Positions 16,054 through 31,114 of a DNA stretch of 40,914 bases are shown piece after piece. The notes under the pieces are model-generated. The model was not told where the DNA came from. It worked only from the letters and a program-made list of their open reading frames with translations, and did not search any database. The first letter of the stretch is position 1. Each line of letters starts with the position of its first letter. The stretch is taken from the NCBI GenBank assembly GCA_017390195.1, contig JAFPCR010000088.1:1-40914 (forward strand), in the 5' to 3' direction. The translations under genes were made by a program, and so were the position numbers. This DNA comes from Clostridia bacterium (lineage in GTDB: Bacteria; Bacillota; Clostridia; Oscillospirales; CAG-272).

Positions 16054-17028
16054 TTAATTTTGATATTTTATCTGCTCCTCGCAAATAAGCGGATAGCGGA
16101 TAAGCCTGTCCGAGTCGAGCTGTTCTTTTCTCATGTCCACTGCCGTTATCTGATGATCGTTGTATGACGTATAATAATATATTCCACGGTCGGCATTACA
16201 GCATGACGTGTATATCGTTATATGGTATTTCCCGCCGTCGGATTCGCAACAACCGTTTGGCACCTCCACCGAGCCGAGAATATGAAACAATTGACTCACA
16301 CTTTCACTTTCTGAGTCTCCCGACACCGAGTTCATCTTGAAAAAAGCCGCACGGACAAATCTTGACTGTGAGGACATATCTCCGGGAAGTCCGATAGCTC
16401 CCATACCCCGACTGTAAACATTCAGCACAAGCTTTTCGGCAAAATTATTTTTCGGGGCTTTAGGCGACAAGGTCATGTAATTGTTGAGATTGAACATCTG
16501 CACCTCAAATAGCGGATTATTGGTCAAAACTCCTACGGTGTTGTCATAGACCTTGATACCCTCTTTTACAGATTCAACGGTTATCGCCCCGTCTCTGTCG
16601 GCAATTATCCAATGAAGCTGTGCCACGGGAAATTTGTCCATAAAGGCAGCCTTGGTCAGATTTATTCCCGCTAAAAGCTCCCTCGCCTCTTTTACAGTCG
16701 AACACTGTGACAATACCCACGGAACAAATTCAAACTGTGCAACATTGTCCCTGCTCGGCATTTCATCTCGGTAATGTGCATTCCCGACAAAGTTAAGCCC
16801 CGCCATGCAAAGCCCCTTTTCGTTTACTGCGTCGTAATAGAGCGGATATTCATCCTCAATATGTGCCATTCCTATCATAGCATAGTGACTTTTCATTTCA
16901 CCCATGCTCACAAAGCGAAATGTATAATTTCGAGGTGTTACTGTTATCTCCTCGCCGTATGAACAGTCATAATCCAAGGTTCTCCCAAAATAAAGATCCT
17001 TTGTTTTATATGTTACCGCCGTACACAT
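16054..17028 (-). CDS. bsh: Choloylglycine hydrolase (bile salt hydrolase / penicillin V acylase family Ntn hydrolase), 324 aa
   Basis: MCTA N-terminal nucleophile; FGRTLD, DAVNEKGL, VLTNNP and GLPGD.SS.SRFVRA. The true start is ATG 17028, not 17346. Confidence 0.9.
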   Translation of the reverse strand: MCTAVTYKTKDLYFGRTLDYDCSYGEEITVTPRNYTFRFVSMGEMKSHYAMIGMAHIEDEYPLYYDAVNEKGLCMAGLNFVGNAHYRDEMPSRDNVAQFEFVPWVLSQCSTVKEARELLAGINLTKAAFMDKFPVAQLHWIIADRDGAITVESVKEGIKVYDNTVGVLTNNPLFEVQMFNLNNYMTLSPKAPKNNFAEKLVLNVYSRGMGAIGLPGDMSSQSRFVRAAFFKMNSVSGDSESESVSQLFHILGSVEVPNGCCESDGGKYHITIYTSCCNADRGIYYYTSYNDHQITAVDMRKEQLDSDRLIRYPLICEEQIKYQN

Positions 17029-17060
17029 TCTTTTACTACACTGCCTTCCATATTTTGATT

Positions 17061-17090
17061 TATTATGGTGAAGTTCAGGTGGGAATATTC
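17061..17090 (-). promoter_or_regulatory. Candidate sigmaG (forespore) promoter of bsh
   Basis: GAATA-18 nt-CATAATA, matching the Bacillus sigmaG consensus GHATA-N18-CATAHTA. Confidence 0.5.
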
Positions 17091-17127
17091 CTCTGAGAAT
17101 GAAAATACCTTTGCTTTCGAAATAAAT

Positions 17128-17159
17128 AAAAAAAGTCGCATCAAATTGATACGACTTTT
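17128..17159 (-). terminator. Intrinsic terminator of the ssrA transcript
   Basis: AAAAGTCGTATCA-ATT-TGATGCGACTTTTTTT. Confidence 0.85.
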
Positions 17160-17259
17160 GGGATGTAGCAATCGGAATTGTATCCGAATCACACCATCGT
17201 GGTGTGAGGTTTGGCATTACACTGCACTCCCTCGATAATTGGGGGCAGGCACTGCCTGC

Positions 17260-17657
17260 TGGTGGAGACGAGGGGAATCGAACCCCTGTCCGAAAGCCTC
17301 TTGACATAACTTTCTCCGTGGGCAGCTTGTCCTTTAAATTTCCCACTCGGCGGCGACGACAAGCAGTCTCCGCTTTGCAGTAGCCCTTTTGTCCATGATC
17401 GAGGCAAGGGCGAATACCCGATTCATGTTCACCGTTACAATGACGCTCAGTCCCGAATCACGGTACTTTCGGGAGGAACGGGTGACCCACAGGTCACAGC
17501 CTGCCAAATGAAGCTCTCAATACGAGAGCGTTCATTTAGGCAGCAAGTGCAACTTTATTGTTGTCGTTTAATTTTTAAGTTTAGGCATTATTACGGGATT
17601 ACCCAGCCCGCCACGCTTATCATGCCTCAAAACCCCCGTCGAAACCATTACGTCCCC
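17260..17657 (-). ncRNA. ssrA: tmRNA, 398 nt, tag peptide (A)DNNKVALAA encoded at 17565-17536
   Basis: 5' GGGGACG pairs with 3' CGTCTCC-ACCA including the G3:U alanine determinant; T-arm GGGGTTCGATTCCCC; tag ORF ends ALAA-TAA. Confidence 0.96.
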
Positions 17658-18634: not shown

Positions 18635-19633
18635 ATGGCATACGCAATTTCGATCGATGAATTTTCCGACACTGTTCGTGAATTTGCTTCATACAAGCTC
18701 GTTATTCAAAACTGTTCAAAAAAGACTGTTGATGAATATCTTCTTGATCTGCGGACATTCTTTCGCTACATAATCGCCAAGCGAAGCGGAATTTCCCCAA
18801 AATCCGAAGAATTCGAACAGATAAACATTAGGCAGGCAGACCTTGATTTTCTGCGTTCCATACGGCAGGACGACATATATGATTTCCTTTTATACACAGG
18901 AACTCAGCGTCAGAATCAGTGGTCGGCAAAATCGAGAAAGCTATCGGCGATCAAGGCACTTTACCGTTTCCTTGTCGTAAAACGTGGATTTCTAAAGGAC
19001 AACCCTGCGGCAAACATCGAATCTCCAAAGCCGAAGCGTTCCCTGCCCAAGTATTTATCAATCGAAGAATGTATGATGCTCCTCGATGCTGTGAAAAACG
19101 ATAAAGAGTCGAAATCAAAAACACGTGACTATGCCATTGTCACTCTCTTTTTAAATTGCGGTATGCGTCTTTCGGAATTGGTCGGCATAAATCTCTCTGA
19201 TATCGACCGTGAGCTGCGTTCGCTGACGGTTACGGGAAAAGGCAACAAGGAAAGGATCGTATATCTAAACGATGCCTGCCGCTCTGCCCTCGCAGATCAC
19301 CTTTCGGAACGTCTGTGCGAAAGCAATAGAACCGTCGGAACGAATGCTCTTTTCATCAGCTCACGTGGACAGCGGATAAGTGCGAAAACCGTTCAGTGGA
19401 TGGTATACAAATATCTCGATATGGCCGGGCTTGAATCCAAGCACTATTCGGTTCACAAGTTGCGTCACACCGCCGCAACTCTTATGTATCAGACAGGTGA
19501 GGTAGATGTCAGGGTCCTAAAGGATATTCTCGGGCATGAGCAGTTGAACACTACCCAGATATACACCCATGTCAGCAACGCAAGCATGGAAAATGCCATG
19601 TCTAAAAATCCGCTTTCAAAAATAAAAAAATAA
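18635..19633 (+). CDS. xerC: XerC-like tyrosine recombinase
   Basis: GMRLSEL, GKGNKER, HKLRH and LGHEQLNTTQIY catalytic set; N-terminal SAM-like region; GGAGG RBS. Confidence 0.85.
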   Translation: MAYAISIDEFSDTVREFASYKLVIQNCSKKTVDEYLLDLRTFFRYIIAKRSGISPKSEEFEQINIRQADLDFLRSIRQDDIYDFLLYTGTQRQNQWSAKSRKLSAIKALYRFLVVKRGFLKDNPAANIESPKPKRSLPKYLSIEECMMLLDAVKNDKESKSKTRDYAIVTLFLNCGMRLSELVGINLSDIDRELRSLTVTGKGNKERIVYLNDACRSALADHLSERLCESNRTVGTNALFISSRGQRISAKTVQWMVYKYLDMAGLESKHYSVHKLRHTAATLMYQTGEVDVRVLKDILGHEQLNTTQIYTHVSNASMENAMSKNPLSKIKK

Positions 19634-25934: not shown

Positions 25935-25964
25935 GTCGCACAATGCACCCGAACAGAATATATT
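25935..25964 (+). promoter_or_regulatory. Possible mother-cell (sigmaE-like) promoter of the sleC cluster
   Basis: GTCGCACA-14 nt-AATATATT, with geometry like sigmaE promoters; weak -35 match. Confidence 0.35.
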
Positions 25965-25998
25965 TATTAAAAAGACTTTTTTTGGGGAGGTATTTTAA

Positions 25999-26463
25999 AT
26001 GAATGATAATATCAGCAACGGTAACATCTTTTCAAATGTTCCGCCCGAATACACACAGACAGGTTATCTTATAGTAAGAGTATCGACGGCAAGAGGAGCA
26101 ATACCGCTTGAAAACGCCACCGTGACCGTGCGTGGATATGACCCGTCAACGATTCCCGATGTCAGCTCGGGAGTGCTTGTTTCAACACGTACGAACCCCG
26201 ACGGAAGCACCGTCCGCATCGCTCTTCCGGCACTTCCGAAGGCTCTTTCACAGGAATCGGGTAACGGAAAAAGCTTTGCCACATATAACATTGACGTAGC
26301 GGCACCCGGATACTATCTGCAAAGCAATATCAACGTGCCGATATTCGAGGGGATAACGGCAGTCCAGAACAGTTATCTTATTCCTTTGCCCGAAAACACG
26401 ACAATCGGTAATGAATATTACGACAGAATAAGATATTTCGAGGGAGAAAACCCGAATCTGTAA
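25999..26463 (+). CDS. Stand-alone SleC N-terminal pre-domain-like protein (carboxypeptidase-regulatory-like beta sandwich)
   Basis: GYLIVRV...PLENATVTV...TNPDG....LPA.....S......ATYNIDVAAPGY follows the recalled N-terminal pattern of clostridial SleC; GGGGAGG RBS. Confidence 0.75.
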   Translation: MNDNISNGNIFSNVPPEYTQTGYLIVRVSTARGAIPLENATVTVRGYDPSTIPDVSSGVLVSTRTNPDGSTVRIALPALPKALSQESGNGKSFATYNIDVAAPGYYLQSNINVPIFEGITAVQNSYLIPLPENTTIGNEYYDRIRYFEGENPNL

Positions 26464-26522
26464 GCAAACTCCAATTTTTGAAGAAAGGATCTTTTGCCAA
26501 TGCAAAAGCCACGGTAACAGTC

Positions 26523-27920
26523 ATGCCGACGACCCCTGTCATTCCTCAGTTTATCACCGTACACCTCGGTGCTCCCGACGAAGAGGCACTGAATGTGACG
26601 GTTCCGTTTATGGATTATGTGAAAAATGTAGCATCGAGCGAGATATACCCCACATGGCCCGAAAATTCAATACGTGCAAATATTTATGCACAGATATCCT
26701 TTGCTTTGAACCGTATATACACCGAATACTACCGTTCGAGAGGATACGATTTCGATATAACAAATTCTACTGCGTTCGACCAATTTTTCGTTGACGAACG
26801 TAACATATTTGAGAATATATCACAGACGGTATCCGAAATATTCGACAGCTATATCCGCCGTCAAGGGTTCATAGAACCTCTGTTCGCACAGTATTGCAAC
26901 GGAACTACGGTGACCTGCAACGGTCTGTCTCAATGGGGTACGGTAGACCTTGCGAACCAAGGGCTTACACCGTATGAGATACTTCAGTTTTACTACGGCA
27001 ACGATATCGATATAGTAACCGATGTACCCGTACAGAACGTGACGGCATCTCTTCCACCTAACCCCTTGAGAATAGGCTCTGTCGGCGATGATGTAAGACA
27101 AATACAAATAAGGCTGAACCGCATCTCAGACAACTACCCCTCGATCCCTAAAATATATCCCACCGACGGAATTTTTACGACAGACACATTTAATGCAGTA
27201 ACGACATTCCAGCAAATATTCAACCTGACTCCCGACGGAGTCGTCGGCAGAGCTACGTGGTATTCAATACAGATGATCTACAATGCCGTGAAACGTCTGA
27301 ATGAGATAAATTCTGAGGGTCTGCGGCTTGATGAGATCTCAAAGCAGTTTCCCTCGGTTCTTTCGCTCGGGTCAAGAGGTGCGGGAGTTCAGACCCTCCA
27401 ATATTTTTTAACATATCTTTCGAACTATTACAATTCTATTCCCCCCGTAGCCATTGACGGTGTGTTCGGGGAAAGCACTCGTGCCGCCGTAATAGACCTG
27501 CAAAACACCTTCGGGCTTACTCCCGACGGAATCGTCGGTGCTAATACGTGGGACACTATGTATAACGCCTATGTTGATATAGTCTCAACTATTCCTCTGA
27601 AGTATGTCGAGGGAAACATCGTTCCGTTTCAAGGAAACATTTTGCGGATCGGCTCAGAATCCGACGAGGTAAGACTTCTTCAGGAATACCTCAACTATAT
27701 CGCAAACGTATATACAGAGATACCTCAGGTAAATGTGACCGGATTTTTCGGAACGAGGACACAGGAGGCGGTCATCGTATTTCAACGTCTGTTCGGTCTT
27801 GAACAAAACGGTCTTGTCGGCTCTGTAACATGGAATGCCATAACAGATGTTTACAGTGACATATTCAACGGCTCTCGTCTGAATGAGGGTCAGCACCCCG
27901 GATACGAGATCGGAGCATAA
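26523..27920 (+). CDS. sleC: SleC-like spore cortex-lytic enzyme: SpoIID-type catalytic domain plus three PG_binding_1 domains
   Basis: PVIPQFITVH, DYVKNVASSEIYPTWP, SFALNRIYTEYYR, AQYCNG, SQWG and three DG.FG/DG.VG..TW-type repeats; exact start uncertain (26478 or 26523). Confidence 0.88.
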   Translation: MPTTPVIPQFITVHLGAPDEEALNVTVPFMDYVKNVASSEIYPTWPENSIRANIYAQISFALNRIYTEYYRSRGYDFDITNSTAFDQFFVDERNIFENISQTVSEIFDSYIRRQGFIEPLFAQYCNGTTVTCNGLSQWGTVDLANQGLTPYEILQFYYGNDIDIVTDVPVQNVTASLPPNPLRIGSVGDDVRQIQIRLNRISDNYPSIPKIYPTDGIFTTDTFNAVTTFQQIFNLTPDGVVGRATWYSIQMIYNAVKRLNEINSEGLRLDEISKQFPSVLSLGSRGAGVQTLQYFLTYLSNYYNSIPPVAIDGVFGESTRAAVIDLQNTFGLTPDGIVGANTWDTMYNAYVDIVSTIPLKYVEGNIVPFQGNILRIGSESDEVRLLQEYLNYIANVYTEIPQVNVTGFFGTRTQEAVIVFQRLFGLEQNGLVGSVTWNAITDVYSDIFNGSRLNEGQHPGYEIGA

Positions 27921-28004
27921 AAACAAAACGAATCTCTTCCACGTCAGTCATACGGCACAAATTCAACGAAAGGCTGCCTTTCACGAAAAGGCATGATATA
28001 CAGT

Positions 28005-28547
28005 ATGGATAACAGACCTAACGAAATAGAAGCCATTTCAAATCTTCAACGCTATCTGCGACGTATTTTTGAATCCGACCCCAACATCGATACGATACCG
28101 ATAGATGGGATATTTGAATCGGCAACACGCAATGCCCTCACCAAATTTCAAATAATGAACGGACTGCCCGCCACGGGAATTGCCGACATCGACACATGGG
28201 AGCTGCTCTATGCACGCTTCCTTGAGGAAAATGAAAGAGTGGCAAAGCCCGAAAAGGTAATGATATTTCCGCCGTATCCCAAAGACTATGCAATGTCTTA
28301 CGGAGACAACTTTTTCAGCATACTCGTCCTGCAACATATGCTTTCCGAGCTTTCGGCAAATTACGACGGAACGAACGGTGAATACGAACGTATAAATCTC
28401 GGCGGAGTCTACGACGACGAAACGCTCTCAGCCGTCACCGATTTTCAAAACAGACACGGTCTTGATGCAACGGGTGCGGTAGATAAGATCACGTGGAACC
28501 GCATAGTTACCGAATACAACATATTATTTGAAGACATACAACAGTAA
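28005..28547 (+). CDS. Protein consisting of two PG_binding_1 domains only
   Basis: LQRYL..DGIF..ATRNAL..FQ...GL.ATG.AD..TW, repeated as LQHML..GVYD.ET..AV.DFQ..HGL.ATG.VD..TW; start at 27993 or 28005. Confidence 0.85.
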   Translation: MDNRPNEIEAISNLQRYLRRIFESDPNIDTIPIDGIFESATRNALTKFQIMNGLPATGIADIDTWELLYARFLEENERVAKPEKVMIFPPYPKDYAMSYGDNFFSILVLQHMLSELSANYDGTNGEYERINLGGVYDDETLSAVTDFQNRHGLDATGAVDKITWNRIVTEYNILFEDIQQ

Positions 28548-28669: not shown

Positions 28670-31114
28670 ATGGCAAATAAATTCACTCAAAAGGCACAGT
28701 CAGCATTACGCCGTTCTCTCGATGTGGCATCGGAGCTTGGGCATTCATATATCGGCTCCGAGCATCTGTTGCTCGGACTTGCGGCAGAAAGTGACGGTAC
28801 GGCTTCACGCCTGCTCTCGGAGCGTGGGGCGACCTATGACAAGATACGAAAGCTCGTTATAGGGATAACAGGCTCGGGAAACCGTTGTCCCGTTTCATCC
28901 TCGGATATGACCCCAAGAGTCAAAAAGATAATAGAGCTTTCTGCCACCGAGGCTCAAAAGGGGGGGCAGACATTTATCGGGACCGAGCATATGCTTTTGG
29001 CTCTCATAGATGAGCGTGACTGCGTAGGTGTAAAGGTACTCGAAAGTATACCCGTATCGATCGCAGAGCTGTCAACAGATATTCAAAATTTCATCAGCTC
29101 GTGCAAGGAAAGGACTTCAGGTGTCCGAAATACACGTGAACGACGAGACGAGCGAAAAGAGCATACCATTTCCACACTTTCGGCGTTCAGCAGAAATCTG
29201 ACGAATGCCGCAAAGGCGGGAAAGCTCGACCCTATAATCGGACGTGACAGTGAGACTCAACGGCTCATACAAATTCTTTCACGCCGAACGAAGAACAATC
29301 CCTGCCTGACAGGTGAACCCGGAGTTGGAAAGACTGCCGTTGTCGAGGGACTCGCACAGAGGATCGCTGACGGAAATGTTCCCGACAACTTAAAGGACAA
29401 AAAGATAATCACTCTCGACATCCCCGCCATGATCGCAGGTGCAAAATACCGTGGCGAATTTGAAGAACGCATGAAAAATGTGATGAGCGATGTTGCCAAA
29501 GACCCGTCGATCATCCTCTTCATCGACGAGATCCATACCCTGATAGGTGCAGGAGCTGCTGAGGGGGCAGTCGATGCCGCAAACATCATAAAGCCTGCCT
29601 TGGCACGTGGAGAGATGCAGCTCATCGGTGCGACAACGATATCGGAATACAGAAAGCATATTGAAAAGGATGCCGCTCTTGAACGCAGATTTCAGCCCGT
29701 AAACGTCAGCGAGCCGAGCGAGAGCGAGGCAATAAAAATATTGCTCGGACTCCGTGACAAATACGAGGCTCACCACGGACTGAAAATAGACGACTCGGCG
29801 ATATATGCCGCAGTTCATCTATCATCAAGATATATCACCGACCGATTTCTTCCCGATAAGGCAATAGACCTGCTCGACGAGGCAGCATCAAAAATGAGGA
29901 TACTTGCCCTGACCACACCGCCCGAATTTCACCGCATCGAGGAACGCATCTCCGATATTTCCCGAGAAATGGAATCTGCCATATCTGCTCAAAATTTTGA
30001 GAGAGCCGCAAAGCTGCGTGACGAGGAGACTCGGCTGAACGCAGAATACGAGATAATGAAGGAAAACAGAAACTCCCGTTCGGATTCAGACGTGCTGACA
30101 GTCACTGACGTAAATATAGCCGATGTCGTGACATTGTGGACAACGATCCCCGTCAGTAGGCTTATGGAGGAAGAAAACGAACGTCTCTTGCACCTTGACG
30201 ACCTTTTGCGTGAAAAAGTCATCGGTCAGGATGAAGCCGTAGAAGCGACCGCACGTGCGATACGACGTGGCAGGCTCGGGCTCAAGGACCCTCACCGTCC
30301 GATAGGCTCTCTTATCTTTCTCGGTCAGAGCGGTGTCGGAAAGACCGAGCTTGCAAAATCTTTGGCTGAAATTCTTTTCGGCTCACGTTCCTCTATAATA
30401 AGACTTGATATGTCGGAGTATATGGAGAAGCACAGTATTTCAAAGCTTATAGGCTCGCCTCCCGGATATGTAGGGTACGACGAGGGCGGTCAGCTTACCG
30501 AAAAGATCCGAAGAAAGCCCTATTCTGTTGTGCTGTTCGATGAGATAGAAAAGGCTCACCCCGACATTTTCAACGCACTCCTACAGGTGCTTGATGACGG
30601 TATTCTCACCGATTCTCAAGGTCGGCATATTGATTTTTCAAACACGGTGATCATAATGACCTCAAATATAGGGGCATCGACAAAAAGCACAAGTCTGCTC
30701 GGGTTCGCCTCCTCGGCAGAATCAGAACGTGCAGAAAATGCCGCTTCACGTGAGCGGATACTGTCGGCTTTACGCCGAACATTTCGCCCTGAATTTCTGA
30801 ACCGTGTTGACGATATAATCGTTTTCAACTCGCTAAACCGCCAAAGCATTGAAAAAATATCGAAGATAATGCTGAACGACCTGAAAAAACGCATATCTCC
30901 GCTCGGAATAGAGGTCGATTTCTCAGACAACGCCGTAAATAGGATCATGGAAAAGGGATTTGATTCCTCAAACGGGGCAAGACCGCTCCGCCGTACCATC
31001 TCTCGCCTGATCGAAGACAAACTCGCCACGGCGATCCTCGACGGAAGTGTCAAAGCTCCCTGCCGTATTACCGTCGATATAGACGGCGATAATACACTTT
31101 TCATTCCGTCATAA
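28670..31114 (+). CDS. clpC: ATP-dependent Clp protease ATPase subunit ClpC
   Basis: Double Clp-N repeat, [11 protein letters not shown]-like [19 protein letters not shown] and an LLGF ClpP-docking loop. Confidence 0.93.

Follow-up and report, generated by a model that had tools for sequence, protein, structure and literature searches.

The 40,914-nucleotide (nt) contig JAFPCR010000088.1 of assembly GCA_017390195.1 (a Clostridia bacterium; Oscillospirales, CAG-272), hereafter the window, carries at positions 25999-27920 of its forward strand two adjacent genes that together encode the parts of SleC, a spore cortex-lytic enzyme. What is understood of SleC control derives from two pathogens, where a one-chain zymogen is cut by Csp proteases (and, in Clostridioides difficile, by YabG as well). 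Here, the pre-domain of the zymogen is encoded by a small gene of its own (stop codon at 26461-26463), and the catalytic domain by the gene that follows (Table 1). An original prediction, made from the letters of the sequence, had described a separate gene of 154 amino acids (aa) with its own ribosome-binding site and stop, a homologue of the SleC pre-domain, followed in another frame by a catalytic gene that begins near the mature N-terminus and holds three peptidoglycan-binding domains. All of these features were recovered in our analysis, and the locus almost certainly represents a genuine two-gene SleC.

Table 1. Features of the two-gene SleC locus and of the gene following it (positions within the window)
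Feature	Position	Strand	Remarks
Shine-Dalgarno-like GGGGAGG	25984..25990	+	9 nt before the small-gene ATG; read off the sequence
Small-subunit gene	25999..26463	+	154 aa plus TAA; ATG start; pre-domain homologue with the first part of the pro-peptide
Beta-sandwich (transthyretin-like) domain of the small subunit, aa 20-127	26056..26379	+	AlphaFold2 (AF2) model and Foldseek
C-terminal tail of the small subunit, aa 128-154	26380..26460	+	end ...EGENPNL; MAFFT alignment to the pro-peptide start
Spacer, 59 nt	26464..26522	+	between small and catalytic genes
Catalytic-subunit gene	26523..27920	+	465 aa from ATG 26523; lytic transglycosylase domain (SleC-type, SpoIID-like) and three PG_binding_1; lacks pre-domain and pro-peptide
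Catalytic domain, aa 1-186	26523..27080	+	aligned to 9h68 chain residues 212-~400
SSEIYPTW motif, aa 38-45	26634..26657	+	invariant columns; modelled interface
Three PG_binding_1	27066..27848	+	about 27066-27281, 27354-27569 and 27642-27848
Third gene	27993..28547	+	184 aa; two PG_binding_1 (PF01471, E 8.5e-25, 2 stretches)

Homology of the 154-aa protein to the SleC pre-domain was confirmed by profile and structure comparisons. By itself, the small open reading frame (ORF) gave a weak match to the structure of the C. difficile SleC zymogen (PDB 9h68; E = 0.0017); a profile built from 45 small proteins matched the same structure at E = 1.1e-18, covering native residues 1-116. A hidden Markov model (HMM) of small proteins also matched the N-termini of 15 fused SleC ORFs in our class sample (300 scored genomes; G144 was left unscored) with E-values from 3.7e-19 to 2.1e-31, and the fused ORF of locus L016 at 1.3e-29. 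The AF2 monomer model is a beta-sandwich with an overall predicted local distance difference test score (pLDDT) of 83.5, and mostly above 90 for the strands, which run from E20-30 to E120-127. When this model was submitted to Foldseek, the four chains of 9h68 were the best matches (E 4e-8, TMq 0.63-0.64), and transthyretin-like domains ranked after them. The beta-sandwich pre-domain of SleC (DUF3869 region) is therefore present, though on a separate polypeptide.

No family was assigned to the small protein by Pfam (E up to 0.1) or NCBIfam, and the database names for its relatives are "hypothetical" or "carboxypeptidase regulatory-like domain-containing"; our comparison names this hitherto unannotated family. 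Counted in representatives (50%-identity clusters), its profile matched 3,997 proteins at E <=1e-3, 2,847 at E <=1e-10, and 302 at E <=1e-30. Of the best 150 matches, P0123 alone is long enough behind its best-scoring match to accommodate a catalytic domain; P0121 (311 aa) has 148 residues there, and in many of the others the match extends to the last residue. The pre-domain fold is repeated in both named proteins (2 stretches in P0121 and 18 in P0123, a protein of 1,878 aa), so the domain is used outside SleC too.

The catalytic ORF matched 9h68 at E = 4.3e-73 over aa 15-278 (phmmer). The ORF lister begins it at TTG 26478, in a frame different from that of the small ORF. This start was set aside for ATG 26523 (MPTTPVIPQFITVH) on the evidence of the orthologues, since each of the 70 orthologous catalytic ORFs listed opens with a start codon and has P-x-IPE-x-ITVHLG only a few residues further on. 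Allowing for the tag of the 9h68 chain, in which native Met1 is chain residue 58, the Met encoded by this ATG lies opposite chain residue 213, i.e. C. difficile residue ~156. On this alignment, the start of the catalytic subunit appears to coincide with the position expected for the N-terminus of mature SleC. The motif NVASSEIYPTWPE is conserved in the catalytic domain, both with respect to 9h68 and among orthologues, and five of the eight residues of SSEIYPTW (S38, E40, P43, T44, and W45) are invariant in 40 sequences. E40 is presumably the catalytic Glu, by analogy with SpoIID. The C-terminal part of the ORF gave three stretches of PF01471 (E 2.5e-46). Profiles of SpoIID stayed under their cut-offs in this ORF (PF08486, 21.3 vs 23 bits; TIGR02669, 39.1 vs 83.3), and the relation to the SpoIID/LytB family is only a distant one.

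The original prediction had cautioned that an indel error could join the two genes, the catalytic frame being open as far back as 26415. The open frame was found as described, and it overlaps the end of the small ORF. The joining indel was sought in independently assembled contigs: those of runs X1, X2, and X5, from three other studies, cover 25950-27150 with 10-17 substitutions and zero gaps. In the contig of run X3, a 1-nt deletion at 26468 and a 1-nt insertion behind 26471 compensate each other, both within the spacer, and an in-frame 3-nt deletion is located at 26527, just after the catalytic start codon. The latter deletion, a population variant, fits the variable distance of 1-8 residues between the Met and the P-x-IPE motif among orthologues.

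The same arrangement was found beyond this genome. When 40 relatives and the own genome were searched, 25 genomes matched the small protein. In all 19 loci fetched from relatives, the catalytic gene is immediately preceded by the small gene, with a stop between them in 18. Altogether, 144 split loci were obtained, the window's own excluded. Across these, the catalytic ORF lies in the same frame as the small ORF in 55, in frame +1 in 38, and in frame +2 in 51; the small ORF closes with TAA in 79, TAG in 18, and TGA in 47 cases. Two or more in-frame stops separate the genes in 16 of the 55 same-frame loci, and the distance from the stop to the catalytic match ranges from 0 to 332 nt in 77 named loci.

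To locate the point at which the chain is divided, the small proteins were compared with one-chain SleCs. YabG cuts C. difficile preproSleC after R119, and proSleC starts with QSELI (PMC6464247; bioRxiv 10.1101/2024.06.10.598338); therefore, the segment PNTL lies inside the pro-peptide. Fused SleCs of the class sample read R-Q-x-x, then x-(I/V)-x-x-x-P-N-T-L-x-G-N-Y-P-P-K-I-P-E, and further on G-V-V-L-x followed by P-V-V-P-E. In a MAFFT alignment, the C-terminal P-x-(N/D)-L of the split tails falls in the PNTL columns of the fused proteins. The P-x-N-L motif is situated ~12 residues into the classical pro-peptide and the small protein stops at its Leu, which is exactly the last residue in 91 of the 144 small ORFs. 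The small subunit therefore combines the pre-domain with ~12 residues from the start of the pro-peptide. The last ~25 residues, which read x-G-N-Y-P-P-K-I-P-E...G-V-V-L in the 14 canonical fused SleCs, are absent. The locus thus holds neither the complete pro-peptide that Csp removes from SleC nor a single-chain prepro-protein. The earlier statement that no pro-segment is recognisable stands for these ~25 residues and has to be amended for the first ~12, which survive at the C-terminus of the small protein.

In the class sample, the catalytic domain was matched in 65 of the 300 genomes. Sixty-six of 70 matched places were examined; the fragments dropped were two in G271 (at contig ends) and two in G244 (one with stops). 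SleC is of the split type in 51 of the 65 genomes. A canonical fused group comprises 14 loci with one chain of 418-474 aa that contains both domains, at 48-56% identity. Loci at 60-71% identity form the split group, in which the genes are divided in 29/29 and 21/22 cases, i.e. 50 of 51. The exception is L091 (G081:C31), a fused ORF of 800 aa with a P-E-Q-L motif and a linker of ~20 residues, whose genome also has a canonical SleC, Csp, and YabG. In addition, L016 (G025:C1) has a fused frame of 334 aa that breaks off 80 nt from the contig end. Both are placed within or beside the split clade and may represent intermediates or re-fusions. A tree was built from the catalytic domain, omitting L016 for the shortness of its match. 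In this tree, the 14 canonical fused SleCs group together in a single clade (support 0.997), and L091 branches as the sister of the 68 split sequences (support 0.93). As the tree was rooted at its midpoint and contains no outgroup, it does not give the direction, fission or fusion.

Among named genome records, 80 loci comprised 77 split and no fused pairs as well as three with too little upstream sequence. The named carriers of the split form are metagenome-assembled genomes (MAGs) of Oscillospiraceae, Acutalibacteraceae, and Eubacteriales, further Ca. Flemingiibacterium, Ca. Avimonas, Butyricicoccus, and Anaerotignum, and two isolates, Fumia xinanensis NSJ-33 (L170) and Acutalibacteraceae bacterium SVS042 (L171), which are examples of cultured, non-pathogenic carriers. 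Far from being peculiar to the genome of the window, the two-gene form is the norm in a large clade of Clostridia.

The distribution of the proteases that process one-chain SleC follows that of the two forms. As stated in the original prediction for the window, Csp was not found: PF00082, PF18425, and a full-length Csp query gave no match in the own genome, which is 71.6% complete. PF18425 was matched in none of 41 genomes of the relatives' set, compared with 12 of 301 class genomes (positive control). S8 proteases are wholly absent in 7 of 18 relatives with a verified split pair, at 93-98% completeness. Four S8 ORFs of other relatives (L021, L023, L025, and L026) were considered as hidden Csps and rejected as ordinary subtilases: their S8 domain is uninterrupted, and they lack the CspB pro-domain, which the control L031 does have; one carries a dockerin and two have signal-peptide-like hydrophobic N-termini. 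Full-length Csp matches (E 1e-42 or better) were obtained in 13 class genomes, that is, in 12 of 13 fused-type vs 1 of 51 split-type genomes. The sole split-type genome with Csp, G317, also holds a fused copy beside csp.

YabG (PF05582) showed a similar distribution, with 8 of 13 fused-type vs 1 of 51 split-type genomes, the only split-type hit (G295) having an internal stop. No match was found in G000 and four relatives at 97-98% completeness (0/5). YabG, which is counted in the sporulation signature (PMC10681294), was present in 50 of the 300 class genomes and in none of four near-complete relatives having SpoIVA and GerA. By their gene content, the carriers themselves are spore-formers: GerA and SleB/CwlJ-type Hydrolase_2 were detected in all five of G000 and its four relatives and SpoIVA in four, and hits to CwlD and PdaA, below the equivalog cut-offs, point to genes like these in the genome or its relatives. 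Taken together, control of the two-gene SleC is very probably independent of Csp and YabG.

The structure of a complex between the small protein and catalytic residues 1-190 was predicted with a score of 0.90, compared with 0.19 for the best of three controls, though 9h68 holds both parts in one chain and the pass may thus be a memory of that structure. Of 157 solved complexes, 116 attained this score, as did 2 of 215 mismatched pairs. The runs share at least 74% of contacts, and the pLDDT of the partner is at least 75. On the catalytic side, the modelled interface consists of residues 38-45, 88, 90-98, 100, 126, 128, 137-138, and 141; on the small subunit, it comprises residues 24-25, 81, 84-88, 92-93, 110, 113-114, 116-126, 147-149, 151-152, and 154. 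It includes both the SSEIYPTW motif and the tail of the small subunit.

A search 30-60 nt upstream of the small genes showed an excess of mother-cell-type promoter motifs. CATA[CT]A.T occurred in 32 of 105 regions (shuffle mean 4.4, maximum 9) and AC-N16-18-CATAnnnTA in 15 of 105 (mean 1.3, maximum 5), counts that are overstated since the loci are related.

On balance, we slightly favor a two-subunit SleC in which the pre-domain, provided in trans, serves as chaperone and latency factor independently of Csp and YabG. Small and catalytic subunits would both be made in the mother cell. The small subunit would then dock non-covalently on the catalytic domain over SSEIYPTW, like the pre-domain in the one-chain zymogen, aid folding of the enzyme, and hold it latent in the dormant spore. 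At germination, the small subunit would be lost or displaced and the enzyme thereby released, with no Csp cleavage involved; YabG would be unnecessary as nothing needs cutting off. Judging from the model, it is somewhat more probable than not that the small subunit binds and controls the enzyme. The suggestion in the original prediction that the small protein replaces proteolysis, as chaperone or inhibitor, finds support in comparative genomics and in the complex model, from which we infer such a role.

A stronger version of this scheme can be put forward only tentatively. In it, the two-subunit SleC of these Clostridia, many of them gut commensals, would be a protease-free, non-covalent zymogen: the pre-domain stays bound with the carboxylate of its P-x-N-L tail in or beside the groove, its displacement (e.g. 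after GerA-dependent release of calcium dipicolinate, Ca-DPA) triggers germination, and this would be the commonest mode of SleC control, to which the cascade of C. difficile and C. perfringens is the exception. The idea of the tail as a plug comes from the analogy with the pro-domains of subtilisin and CspB.

Several points weigh against the favored reading. (i) Inhibition may reside in the ~25 pro-peptide residues that are missing here. In C. difficile, the pre-domain is already cleaved off when the spore matures, and proSleC is held inactive by the pro-peptide alone; the pre-domain is thus not known as an inhibitor. (ii) The tail was modelled in the monomer with low confidence (pLDDT 51-65), and 53 of the 144 small ORFs do not end in Leu. 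(iii) The pass of the complex model may reflect likeness to 9h68 rather than binding of these two chains. (iv) The overstated promoter counts were obtained with consensus patterns, and the window's own region upstream of the small gene has no exact match to a sigma-E/K motif. (v) The own genome is MAG-like, in 122 contigs, and its incompleteness limits its negative results; the association of Csp and YabG with the fused form is confounded by phylogeny, since the families are not independent. (vi) The SleB/CwlJ-type hydrolase of the carriers could be their main cortex-lytic enzyme.

The main alternative, which we regard as less likely although still serious, is that the small protein is a chaperone only. 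It would fold the enzyme in the mother cell and not be kept in the spore; the mature enzyme would be stored and checked by the state of the cortex or by partners, like SleB and CwlJ in Bacillus, to become active after GerA-triggered release of Ca-DPA. This alternative is consistent with the removal of the classical pre-domain during sporulation, with the presence of GerA receptors in 5/5 genomes, and with the loss of precisely that part of the pro-peptide that is nearest to the Csp site. A chaperone role has been proposed for the C. perfringens pre-peptide, which, going by the title of Okamura's report of 2000 (cited in PMC3567191), is said to be required for the production of active enzyme. 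More than transient folding help is suggested, however, by the strong conservation of the tail and of the exact C-terminal Leu (91/144) and by the modelled docking, which covers the invariant SSEIYPTW, though neither point is decisive.

It is rather improbable that the pair is not a germination enzyme at all, but a SpoIID-like lytic transglycosylase acting in sporulation (in engulfment or in remodelling of the cortex), mother-cell lysis, or vegetative wall turnover. The shared SpoIID fold with its weak Pfam and NCBIfam matches would fit such a role, as would the additional SleB/CwlJ-type hydrolase in the carriers. However, the catalytic domain is 48-56% identical to Csp-linked fused SleCs, its match to 9h68 (E 4.3e-73) is far closer than that to SpoIID (E 4e-4), and pre-domain, tail motif, and PG_binding_1 architecture are as in SleC.

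Recoding, i.e. a programmed frameshift or read-through that fuses both ORFs into one zymogen, might be suspected from the adjacency of the genes and from the catalytic frame that stays open over the end of the small ORF, but was rejected as very unlikely on the frame and stop statistics over the 144 loci (frames 55/38/51, all three stops in use, several stops in 16/55, spacers of 0 to 332 nt) and on the lack of significant structure in the spacer. Finally, a sequencing or assembly error or a recently broken one-chain pseudogene, conceivable in a fragmented assembly of 122 contigs where one indel anywhere from 26415 to 26463 would bring the two frames together, is ruled out for practical purposes by three gap-free independent assemblies, 144 orthologous loci of different species split at the same point, two intact ORFs, and an invariant catalytic motif.

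Concerning the spacer, its 59 nt fold no better than shuffled sequences (z-score -0.33), by which a candidate regulatory hairpin at 26491-26508 was ruled out. The spacer also contains a mini-ORF of five codons, from ATG 26501 to TAA 26518, which ends 4 nt before the catalytic ATG, and a GAAAGGA 10 nt ahead of the mini-ORF ATG 26501 (the whole feature spans 26485-26518). Possibly, GAAAGGA and mini-ORF could couple translation of the catalytic gene. No convincing sigma-70-type promoters or terminators were found on the plus strand around the operon.

The third gene, downstream of the catalytic gene, was found as a separate ORF in 47 of the 80 named loci. In further named loci, the match lay inside the catalytic ORF (one) or was ambiguous (two); in 30 of the 80, some of which lack flanking sequence, there was no match at E 1e-20 or better. 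This gene probably belongs to the module, which would then be a three-gene operon, and its product is likely an accessory of the module. Directly downstream of the module lies a gene for a ClpC-like AAA+ ATPase (28670-31111, plus strand). Other genes in the neighborhood encode a member of the choloylglycine (bile-salt) hydrolase family (16054-17343, minus strand) and a phage-type integrase (18635-19630, plus strand).

For cortex opening in many spore-forming gut commensals, the two-gene SleC offers a concrete alternative switch. Its interest lies in the germination of these commensals, while within its own clade it is ordinary. It also follows that the presence of a SleC homologue in a genome does not imply germination of the Csp type in the bile-acid style.

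SleC homologues occur in many clostridia (Galperin et al., bioRxiv 10.1101/2022.02.25.481979), and our literature searches found no published description of a two-gene SleC. In comparison with the classical SleC of C. difficile and C. perfringens (9h68), the module shares a homologous pre-domain, the P-x-(N/T)-L segment, the catalytic domain, PG_binding_1 domain(s), the context of a spore-former, and presumably the same reaction on cortex peptidoglycan. In contrast, the classical enzyme is one polypeptide and not two, has one PG_binding_1 instead of three, and possesses a full pro-peptide, of which the last ~25 residues before the mature N-terminus are absent here. It is processed by YabG and activated by Csp, whereas the carriers of the split form are without detectable Csp and YabG. 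Unlike classical SleC, the module further includes an extra conserved gene with two PG_binding_1, and in the catalytic-domain tree the split form stands apart from the 14 fused canonical SleCs.

SleB-YpeB of Bacillus is a bicistronic system of a cortex-lytic enzyme and a partner needed for its stability. The likeness is one of outline: an enzyme stored without a covalent pro-peptide and a separate, co-encoded, non-catalytic partner. There is no sequence relation, SleB being a Hydrolase_2 protein and YpeB a membrane-anchored PepSY protein; unlike YpeB, the partner here is the pre-domain, now detached, of the ancestral enzyme itself. SleB-YpeB is mentioned by Galperin et al.

The pro-domain of subtilisin stays bound after cleavage and acts in trans. 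Likewise, the pro-domain of CspB stays bound after cleavage (PMC3567191; PMC13434707). Both resemble the small subunit as proposed here in being a separate polypeptide that assists folding and inhibits sterically, its C-terminal residues lying in the active site. They differ in that these pro-domains are made in the same chain and autoprocessed, whereas here the separation is genetic, and in that subtilisin and CspB are proteases, whereas the present enzyme cleaves glycan strands.

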